Assembly: GCA_965246885.1 (NCBI GenBank) | Contig: OZ251992.1 | Span: 2,208,001 to 2,272,000, forward strand | From: Abditibacterium sp. | GTDB taxonomy: Bacteria; Armatimonadota; Abditibacteriia; Abditibacteriales; Abditibacteriaceae | Direction of reading: 5' to 3' | DNA: 64,000 bases | In this document: piece by piece, positions 15,606 through 20,108 of the stretch | Numbering within the stretch: position 1 is the stretch's first letter | Layout of the letters: every line of letters begins with the position of its first letter | Notes under the pieces: model-generated | What the model saw: the letters and a program-made list of their open reading frames with translations, nothing else | Databases searched by the model: none | Told to the model about the DNA's origin: nothing | Position numbers and translations under genes: made by a program

Positions 15606-16160
15606 ATGGAAGATGAAAACCCCCTCGAAACACGGGAGCAACTGGAAGAGATGCGCGAGCACGCCAAGGCTGGCGGCTGGGTGCATTACCTGAGCATTAG
15701 CACCGCCATCATCGCGGTTCTGGCGGCGCTCGCCACGCTCTTGTCGGGCAACTACGCCAACGAAGCGTTGCTCCTCAAAAACAACGCCATCCTGAAGCAA
15801 ACTCTGGCGAGCGACCAGTGGAGTTACTATCAGGCCAAGGGCATCAAGCACGACATCGCCCAAGGTTTCCAAGAGTTAAAGCCCGGTGCGGCGCTCGCCG
15901 CGCGCATCGAGAAGCTCGCCTCCGAGCAGGAAGTCATCAAAACCAAAGCCGAGGGCTACGCCAAAGAAGCCGAAGCCGACAACAAGGAATCCGAAACCAA
16001 CCTCGAACACCATCACAAGTTGGCCATTGGCGTGACGCTCTTCCAAATCGCCATCGCCCTGTCCGCCATCGCCGCGCTGCTTCGGCAAAGACCAGTTTGG
16101 CTGCTTTCCCTTGTCGGCGCGGCGGTGGGCTTGTTCTTTCTGCTGGCAGGCGTGCGCTAA
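15606..16160 (+). CDS. DUF4337-family membrane protein
   Basis: TM, ASDQWSYYQAKGIK, coiled coil, then two TMs (FQIAIALSAIA). Confidence 0.85.
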   Translation: MEDENPLETREQLEEMREHAKAGGWVHYLSISTAIIAVLAALATLLSGNYANEALLLKNNAILKQTLASDQWSYYQAKGIKHDIAQGFQELKPGAALAARIEKLASEQEVIKTKAEGYAKEAEADNKESETNLEHHHKLAIGVTLFQIAIALSAIAALLRQRPVWLLSLVGAAVGLFFLLAGVR

Positions 16161-16697
16161 CTACTTGGCTGGTGCCGGTTTGGGCAAAAGCGGGAGAACC
16201 GCCGCTTCCAAGCTCTCGTTGGTCAGCGCGGGACGCCCGCCTCGGAAGATGGCGCGGATGACGCCTTGCCCATCCACAATGTAAGTTGCGGGCAGGCTGT
16301 CTATGTCGCCAAAACCGTTGGCCTTGGCATCGCAGAGCAGGGCGGCGGGAAAGGAGAATGTGCGCATGACCTTCGCTACCGCTTTGCGATCGTGCCGGTC
16401 GTCCACGCTTTCGCCAATCACTAAGACATCGCCCTTGTGAGCAGTGTAAAACGCCGAAAGAAGCGGCATTTCGGCGCGGCACGGCGGACACCACGTCGCC
16501 CAGAAGTGGACGACGACCACTTTACCCTTGCACGCCGCCAAGTCGAACGGTTGCCCGTCCATTTGTGGCCCGATTAAGGCCGGTGCCGTTTGGCCAACGG
16601 CGGGAGCCGCCGCGACGGGGCGGCTCCCAAGGGTGCACAGCGCGACTGCGCCCAAGCCAATCCGCGCCCAGTTGTGTTTGGAAAGAATGTGAGTCAT
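16161..16697 (-). CDS. TlpA-family thiol-disulfide oxidoreductase, exported
   Basis: HFWATWCPPCRAEMP, LPATYIVD and an N-terminal signal. Confidence 0.92.
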   Translation of the reverse strand: MTHILSKHNWARIGLGAVALCTLGSRPVAAAPAVGQTAPALIGPQMDGQPFDLAACKGKVVVVHFWATWCPPCRAEMPLLSAFYTAHKGDVLVIGESVDDRHDRKAVAKVMRTFSFPAALLCDAKANGFGDIDSLPATYIVDGQGVIRAIFRGGRPALTNESLEAAVLPLLPKPAPAK

Positions 16698-16706
16698 GGC
16701 CGGGTT

Positions 16707-17636
16707 TTAGCCGAAGTCGCGGCTGATGGTGAGTTTGAAGAGCGTGTTGGCGGTCAGTTGGTTGCCGCGCACGTTTTGGTAAATGGGGACGCCGACTTGC
16801 GCGAACACGCGCGTGCCGCCGAAGTGCGTTTCCAATCCCGGCGCGAGCAAGACGCGGTGGTAGCCACTGTCTTTGGGCGCCGAGCGGCTTCCCGAATCGC
16901 CCCTGCGATACGAGCCGATGAGTTGCAGGAGCGGCACGACCTTGGTTTTGCCCACGCGCAAGCCGGAATAGTACACGCCCGCCACCCCGTCCACTTCTGT
17001 GCCGGGATGGTAGTCGCCCCGACTGGCGACGGGCTGTTGCAGTTCGCCGTTGAGGAAGTAATTGAAGCGACTGCGTTCCGAGAAGCGGCTGGTCTTGAAC
17101 GCGCCCAACAGAACGTCGGTGCTGCCGCTTCCGATGCTCGTATCGGGGTCGAATCCCGCGTAAGAGGAGTCGCCCGTCGGAAGCTTGAGGCCATAAGTGA
17201 CGCCTGTTGACATATCCGGCGAGAAGCCGGTATAGATGCCGCGCAAGCGAATGTCGCCGATGCTGGCGTGGCGGAAGCTGACAAGGTTTCCGGTGTCGGC
17301 GTCGGTAGTGATAAAGCGGCGTTGCCAGTAAGGAACGTCGAGCATAACGCCGTTTTTGCGGTTGAACATGTACTGCGCGCCAACGGTGAAGAAGTTGGTG
17401 CGGATGCCCTTATCCGGGTTGTTGGCAGCCGGGGCGGATGAGGTGCCGCTCCGGTTGCGGTTCTGGTTCATGGTGTCGTATTCGACGTACGCCACGCCAC
17501 CGGGATGGTTGGGAAGCATGGTGCCGATAGAGACATCGAATACGCCGCATCCGCAAGCGCACGAATGAGCCGTACGCGGTGCGAGCGCCAGCAAAAGGGC
17601 GGCGCCCATTGGGGCCGTGAGAATGAATTTATTCAT
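16707..17636 (-). CDS. Putative outer-membrane beta-barrel (SphA/MetA-pathway-like) with N-terminal CACGC motif
   Basis: Signal peptide (AHS), CACGCGVFD, IGDIRL, GLKLPTGD, GSGSTD and amphipathic strands ending in SRDFG. Confidence 0.7.
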   Translation of the reverse strand: MNKFILTAPMGAALLLALAPRTAHSCACGCGVFDVSIGTMLPNHPGGVAYVEYDTMNQNRNRSGTSSAPAANNPDKGIRTNFFTVGAQYMFNRKNGVMLDVPYWQRRFITTDADTGNLVSFRHASIGDIRLRGIYTGFSPDMSTGVTYGLKLPTGDSSYAGFDPDTSIGSGSTDVLLGAFKTSRFSERSRFNYFLNGELQQPVASRGDYHPGTEVDGVAGVYYSGLRVGKTKVVPLLQLIGSYRRGDSGSRSAPKDSGYHRVLLAPGLETHFGGTRVFAQVGVPIYQNVRGNQLTANTLFKLTISRDFG

Positions 17637-17645
17637 GTTTTGGCT

Positions 17646-18290
17646 TTACAGGCGCGGGATGGCGCAACCCATTGCGGGGGCCTGCGCGCGCGGGACGGGT
17701 TTGCCCGCGACGACGGCGGCGAGGGCGTTGGCGAGGTCATGTTTCGTGGCGGCTTTGGGGTCGAAGGTTTCGTTGTCCACGCGGCCATGATAGCGGAGCA
17801 CGCCCGCGCGGTCGAAGAGGTAAACCTCCGAACTGGCGCGGCCATCGAGCATCTTCAGAAGGCTCTGATTTTGGTCAACGATGGCCGGATAGTCGAGCAA
17901 ATGGTTTTGCATGAAGCGCGCGATTTCGATGGGCTTTTGGCCGGGTGTGGCGAAAACATAGGCAACACGCAGACCCTTAGGGCTGTATTGCTTCGCCAAG
18001 TTCTTGATGCGTTCCTCGACGGCGACGACGCACGGACACTGCGTGTCGGCGAGGACAAAGAGGCCGATTTTGCCCTTGAACGAGGCTTTGGACAAGCCGC
18101 GTCCATCAAGTGTTTGGGCGGCGAAGGGCGGCATCGGCTGCCCAATGCGGGCGGTGGCAGAGGAGGAAGCGTGTGCGAAGTTTTTGGTTTCGGCTTTGAG
18201 TTGGCCGAACCCTTTTTTGGAGAAGTTGTGGGCGAGCGCGGGCGCCGCCAAGGCGCACAGCGCGGCAAGTGTGAGAATGTGTTTGTTCAT
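17646..18290 (-). CDS. Exported thioredoxin-fold (AhpC/TSA/redoxin-like) protein
   Basis: Signal peptide, CPCV, LRYHGRVD and C-terminal GCAI. Confidence 0.85.
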   Translation of the reverse strand: MNKHILTLAALCALAAPALAHNFSKKGFGQLKAETKNFAHASSSATARIGQPMPPFAAQTLDGRGLSKASFKGKIGLFVLADTQCPCVVAVEERIKNLAKQYSPKGLRVAYVFATPGQKPIEIARFMQNHLLDYPAIVDQNQSLLKMLDGRASSEVYLFDRAGVLRYHGRVDNETFDPKAATKHDLANALAAVVAGKPVPRAQAPAMGCAIPRL

Positions 18291-18296
18291 AGTTGA

Positions 18297-18324
18297 CCTC
18301 GACTTTCATAGGGCGAAAGCGAGG
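18297..18324 (-). promoter_or_regulatory. SD-sequestering mRNA hairpin
   Basis: On the minus strand, CCTCGCTTTC (18324-18315) pairs with GAAAG-T-CGAGG (18307-18297). The 3' arm contains GAGG 6 nt before the ATG at 18290. Confidence 0.7.
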
Positions 18325-18773
18325 GCAACGGGTGGGCCGCGATTGGAAAAGGCGCGGGCAAAGCGGCGCGCAGCGAAGTCGCGGCGCGCGGCACACGGGA
18401 CGGCGACGAGGGTGGCGAGGCGCGCGAGGTGTGTGGGCGATACCAACACTCCGGGCATCGCTCTAAGTAGCAGCGCTAAACACTGCGCGTCGTGCGCCAT
18501 TGGGCTGTGGGCGGCGAAGTGGAAGCGCGCGGTGGGCGCGCTTTGGGAACTTCCTTCGGGGTGCGGAGCGCAGAAGCAAATGGGCGCCCCCGATGCCGAG
18601 CGCAAAAGGCGCGGCTCGTGGTGCGCCGCGTCACAGGTCGCGTGAGCGTGCCCGCCCAGTTCGCAGATGTGCCACGTCGGGGCGACGAACGAGAGCAGGG
18701 CCAGCATCGCCACGAAAAAGCGCAACTGACGCGGGAAGCGCTCGAACCAACTCCGTCCCGACAACATGAGCAC
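18306..18773 (-). CDS. DUF2946/CruR-like His/Cys-rich leader protein with C-terminal RGPP motif
   Basis: N-terminal hydrophobic helix, WHICELGGHAHATCD..HH..PICFCAPH, and NRGPP 7 codons before the stop. Confidence 0.7.
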   Translation of the reverse strand: MLMLSGRSWFERFPRQLRFFVAMLALLSFVAPTWHICELGGHAHATCDAAHHEPRLLRSASGAPICFCAPHPEGSSQSAPTARFHFAAHSPMAHDAQCLALLLRAMPGVLVSPTHLARLATLVAVPCAARRDFAARRFARAFSNRGPPVALAFAL

Positions 18774-18869
18774 TCAGTTAAACGCTTTGGTGCCGCGCGA
18801 AAACGCCCGGTTTGCTCTGAACTGAACCGCGCAAAAGCGTTGCTACACTTCCCTTCCCAAAGGCCCGCT

Positions 18870-20108
18870 TTGAATACCTCAACTCTTATCCACACCTTGC
18901 CCAACGGCCTCACGCTCGTGGGCGAACCCTCCAACAAGCAAGTGGTCGCGTGGAGCCTGCAACTGCCCGCCGGAAGCGCGACCGAACCCGAAGGCAAAGA
19001 CGGACTCACAACTGTCCTCGAATCCGTCATGATGCGCGGCGCGGGCGAGCGCGATTCCCGCCGACTCTCGGATGCCCTCGACGATTTAGGCATCGAGCGC
19101 GGCGGAAGCGCCGAGGTTGAATCCGTCTCCTTTGGCGGCGCCACGCTGGGCTTGTATTTGGCCGACGCCCTTTCCCTCTACGCCGACGTCGCCCGCCGCC
19201 CACGCTTGCCAGAGGACGAATGGGAAGCCGCGCGCGACCTCGCGCTGCAAAGCCTCGACTCGCTGGAAGACTCTCCCTCGCGCAAGATGTTCGTTCAACT
19301 GCGCCGTAGCTGGTTCACGTCGGGGCACCGGCGCGCCGCCATCGGCACCCGCGAAGGGTTGGAGTCTCTTTCCCTCGAAGATTTGCGCGCCGACCACGCC
19401 GCCCGCTTCCGACCCGACGGCGCCATCCTCGCCGTCGCGGGCGGTTTCGATTGGGCCGCAACGGTCGCGCAGGTCGAGCAACTCTTCGGCGACTGGACTG
19501 GAAAGGCGCCGGAGTTAGGCGCCCCGCAAGTCGTGAGCGAGCCGCTTTTCCAGCACATCGAGCAAGACACCGCGCAACAGCAAATCGGCGTCGCCTACTT
19601 GGGTGTTCCTTCAACAGACGCCGACTTTTATGCTTTCCGCGTGGCAACCGACATCCTGAGCGGCGGCATGGGCGCGCGGCTCTTTTCCGAAGTGCGCGAA
19701 AAGCGTGGTCTCGTGTATTCCGTCTCGGCATCCGCGTCGTCGCACCGGGGCATTGGCTACACCCTCGGCTACGCGGGCACCACGCCCGAACGCTCGCAAG
19801 AAACGCTCGACGTCCTCCTTGCCGAGCTTGCCAAGATGCGCGAGGGCGTTTCGCCCGACGAACTCGAACGCGCCCAAGTGCGCATGACCTCCAGCCTCGT
19901 CATGGGCGAGGAGTCCTCCCGCTCGCGGGCAGGCGCGCTCGCGCGCGACTTCTGGATGCTGGGCCGCGTGCGCTCCTTGGAGGAAGTGACCCAGAAAATC
20001 CGCGCCGTCACGCCCGCCGCTATCCGCGTCATGTATGAACGCTTCCCGCCGGAGAATTTCTCGGTCGTCACGCTCGGCCCGCGCAAGCTGGAGCGCCCGG
20101 CCTCCTAA
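18870..20108 (+). CDS. M16 (pitrilysin-family) peptidase-like subunit, non-catalytic type
   Basis: LPNGL, ILSGGMGARLFSEVREKRGLVYSV. HxxEH is replaced by TTVLES. TTG start inferred. Confidence 0.88.
   Translation: MNTSTLIHTLPNGLTLVGEPSNKQVVAWSLQLPAGSATEPEGKDGLTTVLESVMMRGAGERDSRRLSDALDDLGIERGGSAEVESVSFGGATLGLYLADALSLYADVARRPRLPEDEWEAARDLALQSLDSLEDSPSRKMFVQLRRSWFTSGHRRAAIGTREGLESLSLEDLRADHAARFRPDGAILAVAGGFDWAATVAQVEQLFGDWTGKAPELGAPQVVSEPLFQHIEQDTAQQQIGVAYLGVPSTDADFYAFRVATDILSGGMGARLFSEVREKRGLVYSVSASASSHRGIGYTLGYAGTTPERSQETLDVLLAELAKMREGVSPDELERAQVRMTSSLVMGEESSRSRAGALARDFWMLGRVRSLEEVTQKIRAVTPAAIRVMYERFPPENFSVVTLGPRKLERPAS

Follow-up and report, generated by a model that had tools for sequence, protein, structure and literature searches.

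This report concerns a short open reading frame (ORF), and the RNA hairpin directly after it, in a 64,000-nucleotide (nt) stretch of DNA from an Abditibacterium species (assembly GCA_965246885.1, contig OZ251992.1, positions 2,208,001 to 2,272,000 of the forward strand), which we refer to as the window and whose own numbering is used for all of its features. We consider it likely that ribosome arrest at an Arg-Gly-Pro-Pro (RGPP) motif close to the end of this ORF controls the unmasking of the start region of the next gene, which encodes a redoxin, with the stall at RGPP itself proposed by analogy to published work on RGPP and RAPP motifs. The ORF is, in our view, a real and well-conserved regulatory leader and a lineage-specific variant of the CutF type, and the mechanism class is not new: it is that of the CutF model published for Rhodobacter in 2023 and 2025 (PMC9973294; bioRxiv 10.1101/2025.02.05.636593). 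An earlier reading of the window, made from its letters alone (the sequence-only reading), had offered the output through a Shine-Dalgarno (SD) hairpin as its own inference, and this had in fact already been published for CutF in the same two sources. The features that it described are all present where it placed them, and its mechanism is, in general outline, probably correct. What is new is a sequence family that lies outside the DUF2946 model, a sensor with a single Cys and a conserved ruler, a set of targets comprising CPC redoxins and DUF1559 proteins, and the phylum.

The leader, an arrest-peptide ORF of the CutF/CruR-like kind, occupies 18306..18767 on the minus strand, with an ATG start, 153 residues and a TGA stop codon at 18308-18306; this is the form found in the protein database (P0001), and all residue numbers follow it. 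An alternative GTG start at 18773 gives a leader of 155 residues (18306-18773, minus strand), which is the ORF that the sequence-only reading had picked out, and the N-terminal hydrophobic helix that it saw there was borne out by AlphaFold2 (residues 12-32, at a predicted local distance difference test score, pLDDT, of ~90). The RGPP motif (R143 G144 P145 P146, codons CGC GGC CCA CCC) lies at 18330..18341 on the minus strand, 7 codons from the stop as had been read, and is followed by VALAFAL and the TGA. By the toeprints of CruR and ApdA/ApdP (PMC12992588), the P site would be occupied by Pro145 (18335-18333) at the expected stall, and the A site by Pro146 (18332-18330).

Directly downstream, positions 18292..18329 of the minus strand are predicted to form a hairpin of 15 pairs, with its 5' arm at 18329-18314 and its 3' arm at 18308-18292; both the leader's stop codon and the SD that serves the next gene lie within it. 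The 5' arm, made of GUUG (18329-18326) and CCUCGCUUUCG (18324-18314), pairs with UGAAAG.CGAGG.CAAC (18308-18292). A 10-bp stem starting 5 nt past the last Pro codon had been described before; this core is real (18324-18315 with 18307-18297, with one bulged U), but the predicted helix is longer, and with its outer pairs, GUUG at 18329-18326 with CAAC at 18295-18292, it begins at the first base past the last Pro codon. The GAGG SD of the redoxin gene (18297..18300, minus strand), 6 nt before the ATG at 18290, does lie buried in the 3' arm as claimed, paired with CCUC at 18324-18321, and the gap from the leader stop to the redoxin ATG is just 15 nt. The 91-nt context of the hairpin has a minimum free energy (MFE) of -24.1 kcal/mol against a mean of -14.55 (standard deviation 2.81) for shuffled sequences (z = -3.40), and 0 of 200 shuffles were as stable. 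A promoter and terminator scan of 16000-19100 gave 4 terminator-like sites where 3.7 were expected, and the hairpin lacks a U tract.

Our main argument comes from the same helix in homologous loci, which we surveyed in 19 loci from 18 genomes by MFE folding from RxPP to 12 nt beyond the start of the next gene. Eighteen show such a helix, with a 5' arm that sets in between -5 and +4 nt relative to the end of the second Pro codon and a 3' arm over the SD and/or the start codon, so the earlier proposal that the hairpin masks the next start, made for the window, extends to its relatives. Across the 19 loci the distance from the two Pro codons (PP) to the stop varies from 3 to 39 nt and that from stop to start from 15 to 229 nt, and the helix is thus tied to the stall site and not to the stop codon; in L002 and L012, with stop-to-start distances of 229 and 158 nt respectively, the arms pair over a long intervening stretch. 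Since the helix follows the stall site, we think that what the RNA element responds to is a ribosome that has paused at RxPP. Conservation of hairpin and motif in homologous loci, the check proposed by the sequence-only reading, thus came out positive for both (RxPP in 89 of 89 relatives, the helix in 18 of 19 loci), with the qualification that the arm sequences differ: they are lineage-specific, for example GUUGAC in L004, ACUCCUUUUAA in L011, CCUUUCGUUG in L018 and GACUUGUUGAAUU in L008, and by our reading there are at least 10 different ones. In L012 and L051 (also L011), the Pro codons of the arrest motif (CCU CCN) are themselves the anti-SD sequence CCUCC that pairs with GGAG of the next gene, so that stall site and masking sequence coincide.

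Three comparisons speak to the specificity of this pairing, none of whose figures should be taken as probabilities, as the loci are kin. In 15 loci the duplex of the cognate arm with its translation initiation region (TIR) averages -14.8 kcal/mol, as against -7.9 (standard deviation 2.95) for non-cognate combinations, and the TIR of L003 was cut too short for the L003 value to be meaningful. In 10 of the 15 no other pairing in the row is stronger than the cognate one, and in 10 of the 15 no more than 5 of 500 arm shuffles equal it. When a 25-nt frame is slid along the last 180 nt of the leader plus the spacer, the segment next to PP pairs best with the TIR in 11 of 19 loci, where ~13% would be expected by chance. 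In addition, we modelled a stalled ribosome by barring all pairing of the RNA as far as +11, +13 or +15 from the P-site codon. Averaged over the 19 loci, the probability that the TIR (-15..+3) is unpaired then goes up from 0.40 to 0.54, 0.55 and 0.56 respectively, and in many loci (L004, L007 and L011, for example) the helix collapses already at +11.

The peptide, too, is conserved, at three fixed points. A profile of 15 locus-encoded homologues, searched against 1.84 billion proteins, gave 59 representative clusters at an expectation (E) value <=1e-3, 50 of them at E<=1e-10. R-x-P-P is present in all 89 family proteins, 1-10 residues from the C-terminus (59 RGPP, 29 RAPP and 1 RSPP), which agrees with the earlier classification as an arrest-type leader, and the Gly/Ala and Pro codons of the motif differ synonymously from locus to locus, which indicates selection on the peptide and not on the RNA. 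The distance from the CLAx motif to the Arg is 42-44 residues in 87 of 87 (43 in the window), with CLT in place of CLA in 2 of the 89 proteins; the fourth residue is non-Cys in 84 of 87 and Cys (CLAC) in the remaining 3. By contrast with this ruler, the spacing from WHxC to CLA is variable, at 35 to 148 residues. In an alignment of 51 sequences (mean column identity 21%), from which 8 of the 59 representatives (P0022, P0031, P0038, P0042, P0050, P0051, P0054 and P0061) were excluded as fragments or long two-stretch forms, the invariant columns are A29, H33, C96, L97, L101, R143, P145 and P146, and the near-invariant ones P30, C35 (>=90%) and A98; across the 15 loci W32, H33 and C35 are invariant. 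The His/Cys-rich middle noted in the earlier reading is indeed seen in the window copy, but only H33, C35 and C96 are conserved in the family and the remaining His and Cys residues vary.

These residues sit at well-defined places. Following a basic N-terminus, the hydrophobic helix (residues 12-32, 18672..18734, minus strand; block pLDDT 94/89), whose hydrophobic character is conserved in the family alignments, is probably a Sec signal-anchor followed by an invariant Ala-Pro; a Pro after the hydrophobic helix blocks cleavage by signal peptidase. Residues 29-35 read A29-P-T-W-H33-I-C35, and the WHIC motif (W32 H33 I34 C35; 18663..18674, minus strand), placed by the family alignments, lies at the helix's outer end and contributes the first conserved His/Cys pair, ahead of a variable linker that contains His and Cys. 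The CLALLLRAMP motif (C96-P105; 18453..18482, minus strand) puts C96 where DUF2946 has its CxxC, 43 residues before R143. In the AlphaFold2 model (mean pLDDT 64.1) the helix is the sole confident part and the rest is mostly low-confidence coil, so the leader protein is predicted to be largely disordered.

As to distribution, when the 31 genomes of the class were searched with a profile, the family turned up in 17 of the 26 that belong to the window's own taxonomic family and in 0 of 4 from other families; some genomes are incomplete, and non-detection there is not proof of absence. Going by these matches, the leader family is found only in one Abditibacteriota family. The first genome search had returned 20 loci, five of which (L015, L016, L017, L019 and L020, E 1.1e-4 to 9e-3) were dropped as, under our filter, they hold no ORF with both the Cys motif and R[AG]PP.

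It is natural to ask whether the leader is simply a DUF2946 (PF11162) protein, as CruR is. The window leader matches no Pfam or NCBIfam family and has no DUF2946 match at E<=1 in the HMM search that the sequence-only reading had proposed, which bears out the suspicion that it is, in that respect, a distinct variant. Against the Pfam gathering threshold of 23.7 bits, sub-threshold matches were seen for 2 of the 15 locus proteins (best E 0.045) and, over the full length of the profile (~1-117), for 9 of 58 representatives (best 22.0 bits). The window's own genome has no DUF2946 match over the cut-off, and 7 of 201 genomes of the phylum have one. When the family profile was aligned by hhalign with five true DUF2946 proteins of the same phylum, 17 C-terminal columns only were aligned, at a probability of 6.6%, and neither the CXXC of DUF2946 nor the CxxxC of CutF is present in the window leader (C96-L-A-L99). 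What the leader does share with DUF2946 is a C-terminal RxPP, a Cys-to-RxPP spacing of ~45 residues and an N-terminal hydrophobic targeting segment; indeed, in L035, a true DUF2946 protein from the window's taxonomic family, 43 residues separate Cys and Arg, as counted on the sequence. In addition, a homologue from Abditibacterium utsteinense, 40% identical, carries the UniRef name 'DUF2946 domain-containing', and a cluster of ESM Atlas neighbours of the leader (rank 7, score 0.95) is 92% DUF2946. Membership was rejected on the scores below the Pfam threshold, the missing CxxC and the purely C-terminal hhalign match; the leader may work like CutF, and may be a very divergent relative of DUF2946.

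True DUF2946 leaders also occur in the phylum in tandem: at L036:1411-1740 and L036:1792-2124, two such ORFs (CSLC...RAPP and CALC...RAPP) lie 51 nt apart before a gene for a secreted protein, which would be a double arrest-leader arrangement.

The window's own genome contains a second, unrelated RGPP leader of 145 residues (G000:C1:376787-377236, minus strand; L061:2288-2737), which came to light in a six-frame count of RGPP/RAPP near ORF ends, a count dominated by spurious frames of high GC content. It has an N-terminal hydrophobic segment, CPRC, CPMC and CGC motifs and the ending PPRGPPAL, and gives no DUF2946 match. A helix right after its last Pro codon bridges an 86-nt spacer to pair with the sequence around the ATG of the next gene; the locus folds at -39.6 kcal/mol (z -2.63), with 2 of 200 shuffles as stable. 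That next gene (L061:489-2201, minus strand) encodes a secreted, Met-rich, cupredoxin-like protein of 571 residues (Pfam Copper-bind, E 0.0064, under the cut-off). We count this second leader, with its PP-anchored helix before a cupredoxin-like gene, in favour of arrest-controlled unmasking.

What, then, does the leader regulate? In the window the first gene (17646..18290, minus strand) encodes a secreted redoxin of 214 residues with a thioredoxin fold (Pfam Redoxin E 1.2e-11, AhpC-TSA 1.8e-9). Instead of the thioredoxin CxxC it carries CPC (ADTQCPCV), and together with its orthologues in L002, L004-L010 and L059 it ends in a conserved PAMGCAIPR[ILV]; a Cys in DGRxSSEVY is conserved in most orthologues and is Ala in the window copy and in L007. 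The second gene (16707..17636, minus strand; 309 residues) starts 9 nt past the redoxin stop and has a Cys-rich CACGCG motif after its signal peptide. Its product has no Pfam or NCBIfam match; its ESM Atlas neighbours are named porin or lipoprotein, with Phenol_MetA_deg in 13% of one cluster, and this gives us the lead that it is probably a porin-like outer-membrane protein, which may be a metal-related channel. The third gene (16161..16697, minus strand), after another 9-nt gap, encodes a TlpA/ResA-like thiol-disulfide oxidoreductase of 178 residues with WCPPC (Pfam AhpC-TSA 1.7e-19, Redoxin 6.2e-18; NCBIfam ResA 3.8e-20 and TlpA 2.2e-17, both under their equivalog cut-offs).

Over the 19 loci the first downstream gene encodes a CPC-type redoxin in 10, a DUF1559 pseudopilin-like protein with a prepilin-type N-methyl signature in 6, a secreted HMA/MerP-like protein in 2 and a DUF7282 protein in 1 (Pfam was run for 14 of the 19, and L004, L005, L007, L009 and L010 were assigned by near-identical sequence). 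Further downstream, 14 proteins from 6 of ten wider stretches, 9 of which have a recognisable leader, were scanned against Pfam and include two DJ-1/PfpI+YHS, two DUF4198, three HMA and two CusF proteins and one more redoxin. As HMA, CusF and YHS are domains for copper or thiophilic metals, the leader family appears to head copper-related operons. DUF1559 (H-X9-DG) proteins are the direct targets in L003, L011, L013, L014, L055 and L058 and the second gene in L022, L024, L025, L029 and L030, where they lie beside DJ-1+YHS, DUF4198, HMA and CusF genes, a hint that metal handling involves part of this large family.

On this gene context we lean towards copper or another thiophilic metal as the ligand. 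The sequence-only reading had suggested that the ligand may differ from that of CruR, and here the evidence goes the other way, since the HMA/MerP-like, CusF and YHS proteins in the relatives' operons point to copper or a thiophilic metal just as in CutF and CruR. As for the sign of the response, we tentatively prefer the CutF direction, in which metal prolongs the stall, because a set made up of CusF, HMA and redoxin genes has the look of one induced by stress. Protection against copper is one role of periplasmic thioredoxin-like proteins, Scs and DsbC among them.

The mechanism that we propose would run as follows. The N-terminal hydrophobic helix of the leader would target the nascent chain to the membrane; at R143-G144-P145-P146, peptide-bond formation to the last Pro would be inhibited and the ribosome would pause with Pro145 in the P site. 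The exit tunnel is ~30-40 residues long, and at this pause Cys96 would be ~45 residues from the peptidyl-transferase centre and just out of the tunnel, with His33 and Cys35 at the outer face of the membrane helix. The 43-residue ruler, in placing Cys96 just outside the tunnel, suggests that the leader senses its cue just as the ribosome stalls, at the translocon or the tunnel exit. The paused ribosome would cover the 5' arm of the hairpin, weakening or opening the pairing over the SD and start, and the redoxin/porin-like/TlpA-like operon would then be translated more. The length of the pause would be set by what the Cys and His residues meet: Cu(I) or another thiophilic metal on the thiols would block a folding or disulfide event that pulls on the chain, the stall would be prolonged, and a periplasmic operon for thiol repair and copper handling would be induced.

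The strongest of the alternatives, although we consider it unlikely, keeps the same parts and reverses their sense, as in CruR and as the sequence-only reading had it: the ribosome would stall by default with the operon on, and metal would fold the nascent chain, end the arrest and switch the operon off, in the service of copper acquisition or cuproenzyme assembly. TlpA is linked to CuA assembly, and the TlpA-like reductases and porin-like protein could well serve copper delivery to oxidases. Moreover, the arrest of CruR is relieved by Cu through a CXXC whose 45-residue spacing matters (PMC9426467), the leader family has the same ruler, and the intrinsically robust arrest at RGPP (PMC12992588) would fit a default-on state. 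However, CusF and the MerP/HMA-type periplasmic binders of the relatives' operons are usually metal-induced detoxification genes, and the output of CruR is Rho termination in a 162-nt region, whereas here we find a 15-nt gap and an SD hairpin as in CutF, where Cu induces.

A second alternative, which we regard as quite unlikely, dispenses with the metal and makes the leader a sensor of thiol redox state, in which a Cys35-Cys96 disulfide, put into the nascent chain by the oxidising machinery of the cell, would pull it out of the RGPP arrest, and failed or reversed oxidation would keep the stall and so set the supply of periplasmic thiol-disulfide oxidoreductases. Exactly two Cys are conserved family-wide, a thioredoxin-fold protein is the commonest first target (10 of 19 loci), and the window operon has two such proteins and no clear metal protein; in addition, the 2025 CutF model invokes disulfide formation as the event that relieves arrest (bioRxiv 10.1101/2025.02.05.636593), and genes for DsbA and thioredoxin are enriched after RAPP/RGPP upstream ORFs (uORFs; PMC12992588). 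The HMA, CusF and YHS genes in the relatives' operons, with HMA as the first gene in 2 loci, favour metal instead, the invariant His33 beside Cys35 fits a metal site better than a disulfide, and Cys96, judging from the 43-residue spacing, is probably still at the tunnel exit or translocon at the stall and not in the periplasm. Were this alternative true, the supply of oxidoreductase would be set by direct feedback from disulfide chemistry on the leader peptide, and the Cys-to-RxPP ruler common to DUF2946 and the leader family would be a general geometric rule for sensing at the exit port.

A third possibility, plain translational coupling, we judge improbable as the whole explanation, and it is here that the evidence weighing against our proposal is best set out. 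By this account the hairpin merely links the redoxin to upstream translation, RGPP acts constitutively as a pause or else is a structural motif, and the small protein works in its own right, for instance as a membrane-anchored metal-binding protein. The stop codon does lie inside the hairpin, so every terminating ribosome opens it, and as a ribosome that reads to the stop melts the hairpin too, coupling explains part of the anatomy. Release of the SD by the stall alone is, in the window, only partial in our model: at +11 the 10-bp inner hairpin (-12.9 kcal/mol) persists with the SD still paired, the SD comes free only when structure is excluded to about +15, and the unpaired probability of the TIR rises merely from 0.24 to 0.32-0.44. 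Accessibility of the TIR falls slightly in 3 of the 19 loci (L012, L051 and L055) and is unchanged in L003, the helix of L051 has only 4 pairs over the SD, and in 8 of 19 loci the 25-nt scan places the strongest pairing with the TIR outside the PP-adjacent segment, although it cuts compact loci, the window's among them, unfairly. One locus of the 19, L058, is the exception with no PP-anchored helix. Beyond the RNA, the window operon itself lacks an unambiguous copper or metal protein, and homology to DUF2946 is not established, which makes carrying over its mechanism a matter of analogy. We therefore allow that at the window copy a stall may only weaken the hairpin, and that terminating ribosomes, through ordinary coupling, may account for part of the expression. 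Nevertheless, coupling does not explain why the 5' arm tracks the PP codons and not a stop 3-39 nt away, nor the invariance of RxPP in 89 of 89 proteins when the motif is avoided in proteomes (PMC12992588); the leader, like CruR (PMC9426467), is predicted to be largely disordered (mean pLDDT 64), and a ruler of 42-44 residues makes no obvious sense for a mature protein.

The leader of L058, in a region matched also as L060 (G014:C6:610876-611281), is split, with a TGA inside the match and its N-terminal part matched separately, and it may be a decaying copy.

Lastly, it is very improbable that the leader is a monitor of Sec or YidC translocation like SecM, MifM or ApdA/ApdP, in which the pulling force of export alone would free the arrest with no ligand: the N-terminal signal-like helix and C-terminal RGPP are as in ApdA/ApdP homologues (PMC12992588), but none of the first downstream genes in the 19 loci (0 of 19) encodes a Sec or YidC component, and the Cys/His residues and their fixed spacing are conserved.

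On the other side of the leader lies a divergent gene for an M16 peptidase (18492-20108, plus strand; Peptidase_M16_C, E 6.4e-33), whose ORF as listed overlaps the leader on the opposite strand, so that its true start is probably further downstream. The promoter of the leader must lie in the region shared with the M16 gene, at ~18774-18900, and a sigma-70-like site was not found in that region.

Why should this locus be of wider interest? The variety of helix sequences, all anchored at the stall site, argues that the RNA switch reads the stall and not termination, and we did not find this point in the accessible portions of the published papers; the same holds for the Cys-to-RxPP distance of ~43-45 residues, which is kept without a CxxC and outside the DUF2946 model and makes the ruler a testable mechanistic feature. 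The leader provides a natural comparator, with RGPP and lacking CxxC, for how the binding of a ligand outside the ribosome reaches the peptidyl-transferase centre, and it brings a new sensor motif (WHxC plus a single ruler-placed Cys) together with new targets in the CPC redoxins, DUF1559 pseudopilin-like proteins and HMA proteins. In the accessible part of PMC12992588, supplementary lists aside, neither an analysis of SD hairpins nor an example from Abditibacteriota is mentioned; in the supplements of PMC9973294 and PMC9426467, apart from File S1 (list D) of the former, there is no entry for Abditibacter, Armatimonad, redoxin or thioredoxin, and in the former none for two Pfam accessions; and a search of the full-text literature returned no paper linking 'Abditibacteri' with 'arrest peptide'.

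Several known systems invite comparison, and the leader shares something with each of them. With ApdA/ApdP, SecM and MifM it would have in common an arrest of the RAPP/RGPP (or RAGP) type at the peptidyl-transferase centre, besides an N-terminal export signal, and in SecM and MifM, as the sequence-only reading stated, a downstream SD hairpin is opened by the stalled ribosome; unlike the window leader, these peptides precede secA, secDF or yidC and have no conserved Cys/His sensor. Closer are the small secretory or membrane uORFs surveyed by Fujiwara et al. (2025, PMC12992588), who report RGPP to be the most robust arrest core, refractory to elongation factor P (EF-P), show by toeprinting that the P and A sites at the stall hold codons three and four of RAPP respectively, find the motif to be generally avoided in proteomes, and describe RAPP/RGPP uORFs across phyla before genes for TonB-dependent receptors, PCu(A)C, YcnI, PepSY, DsbA and thioredoxin-domain proteins. 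One of them, SLIV_27375 of Streptomyces, precedes a thioredoxin-domain gene and arrests in vitro (PMC12992588). The likeness extends to a small secretory or membrane protein, a C-terminal RGPP/RAPP, a same-strand gene downstream and two conserved Cys, with thioredoxin-domain and Cu-related genes among the enriched targets (PMC12992588); SLIV_27375, however, has four predicted transmembrane segments and is from an actinomycete.

CruR (Bp2923) of Bordetella pertussis has a CXXC and a RAPP 45 residues apart, a spacing that matters, with its arrest relieved by Cu and its output given by Rho-dependent termination in an unstructured 162-nt spacer (PMC9426467). Like the window leader it is ~145-150 residues long, starts with a signal-like segment, carries R-x-P-P shortly before its C-terminus and is predicted to be poorly structured, and it has a sensor Cys fixed at ~43-45 residues from the Arg and a metal-related operon behind it. 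It differs in having a CXXC where the window leader has CLAL, in using Rho termination in a 162-nt spacer as against a 15-nt gap with an SD hairpin, and in serving a TonB-dependent transporter where the window leader serves a redoxin; the earlier statement that the window copy has no CxxC and that its target is not a TonB-dependent receptor is accurate.

The nearest match is CutF of Rhodobacter capsulatus, a small protein that is exported as it is translated and carries a CxxxC as well as a Pro-rich motif at its C-terminus (PMC9973294), in which a stem-loop masks the cutO ribosome-binding site, the C-terminal Pro-rich stall opens this stem-loop, and Cu induces downstream expression (PMC9973294; bioRxiv 10.1101/2025.02.05.636593); in the 2025 version of the model, disulfide formation is the event that relieves the arrest (bioRxiv 10.1101/2025.02.05.636593). 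There are differences: CutF stalls at PPP (PEPEGPPPRL) in an EF-P-dependent manner, whereas the window leader has an RGPP core of the type reported to be EF-P-refractory (PMC12992588); its sensor is a CxxxC as against WHxC plus a single Cys in CLAxLL; its target is a multicopper oxidase exported by the twin-arginine (Tat) pathway and not a Sec-type redoxin; and the phylum is another. The shared plan is that of a small exported leader with a Cys-based sensor motif, a Pro-rich stall near the stop codon and an SD stem-loop just downstream, which in CutF acts in cis at the head of a copper-related operon (cutFOG). The window locus thereby extends to a little-studied phylum the principle of CutF and CruR, by which a nascent exported peptide senses an extracytoplasmic cue and its stalling sets the translation of the next gene.

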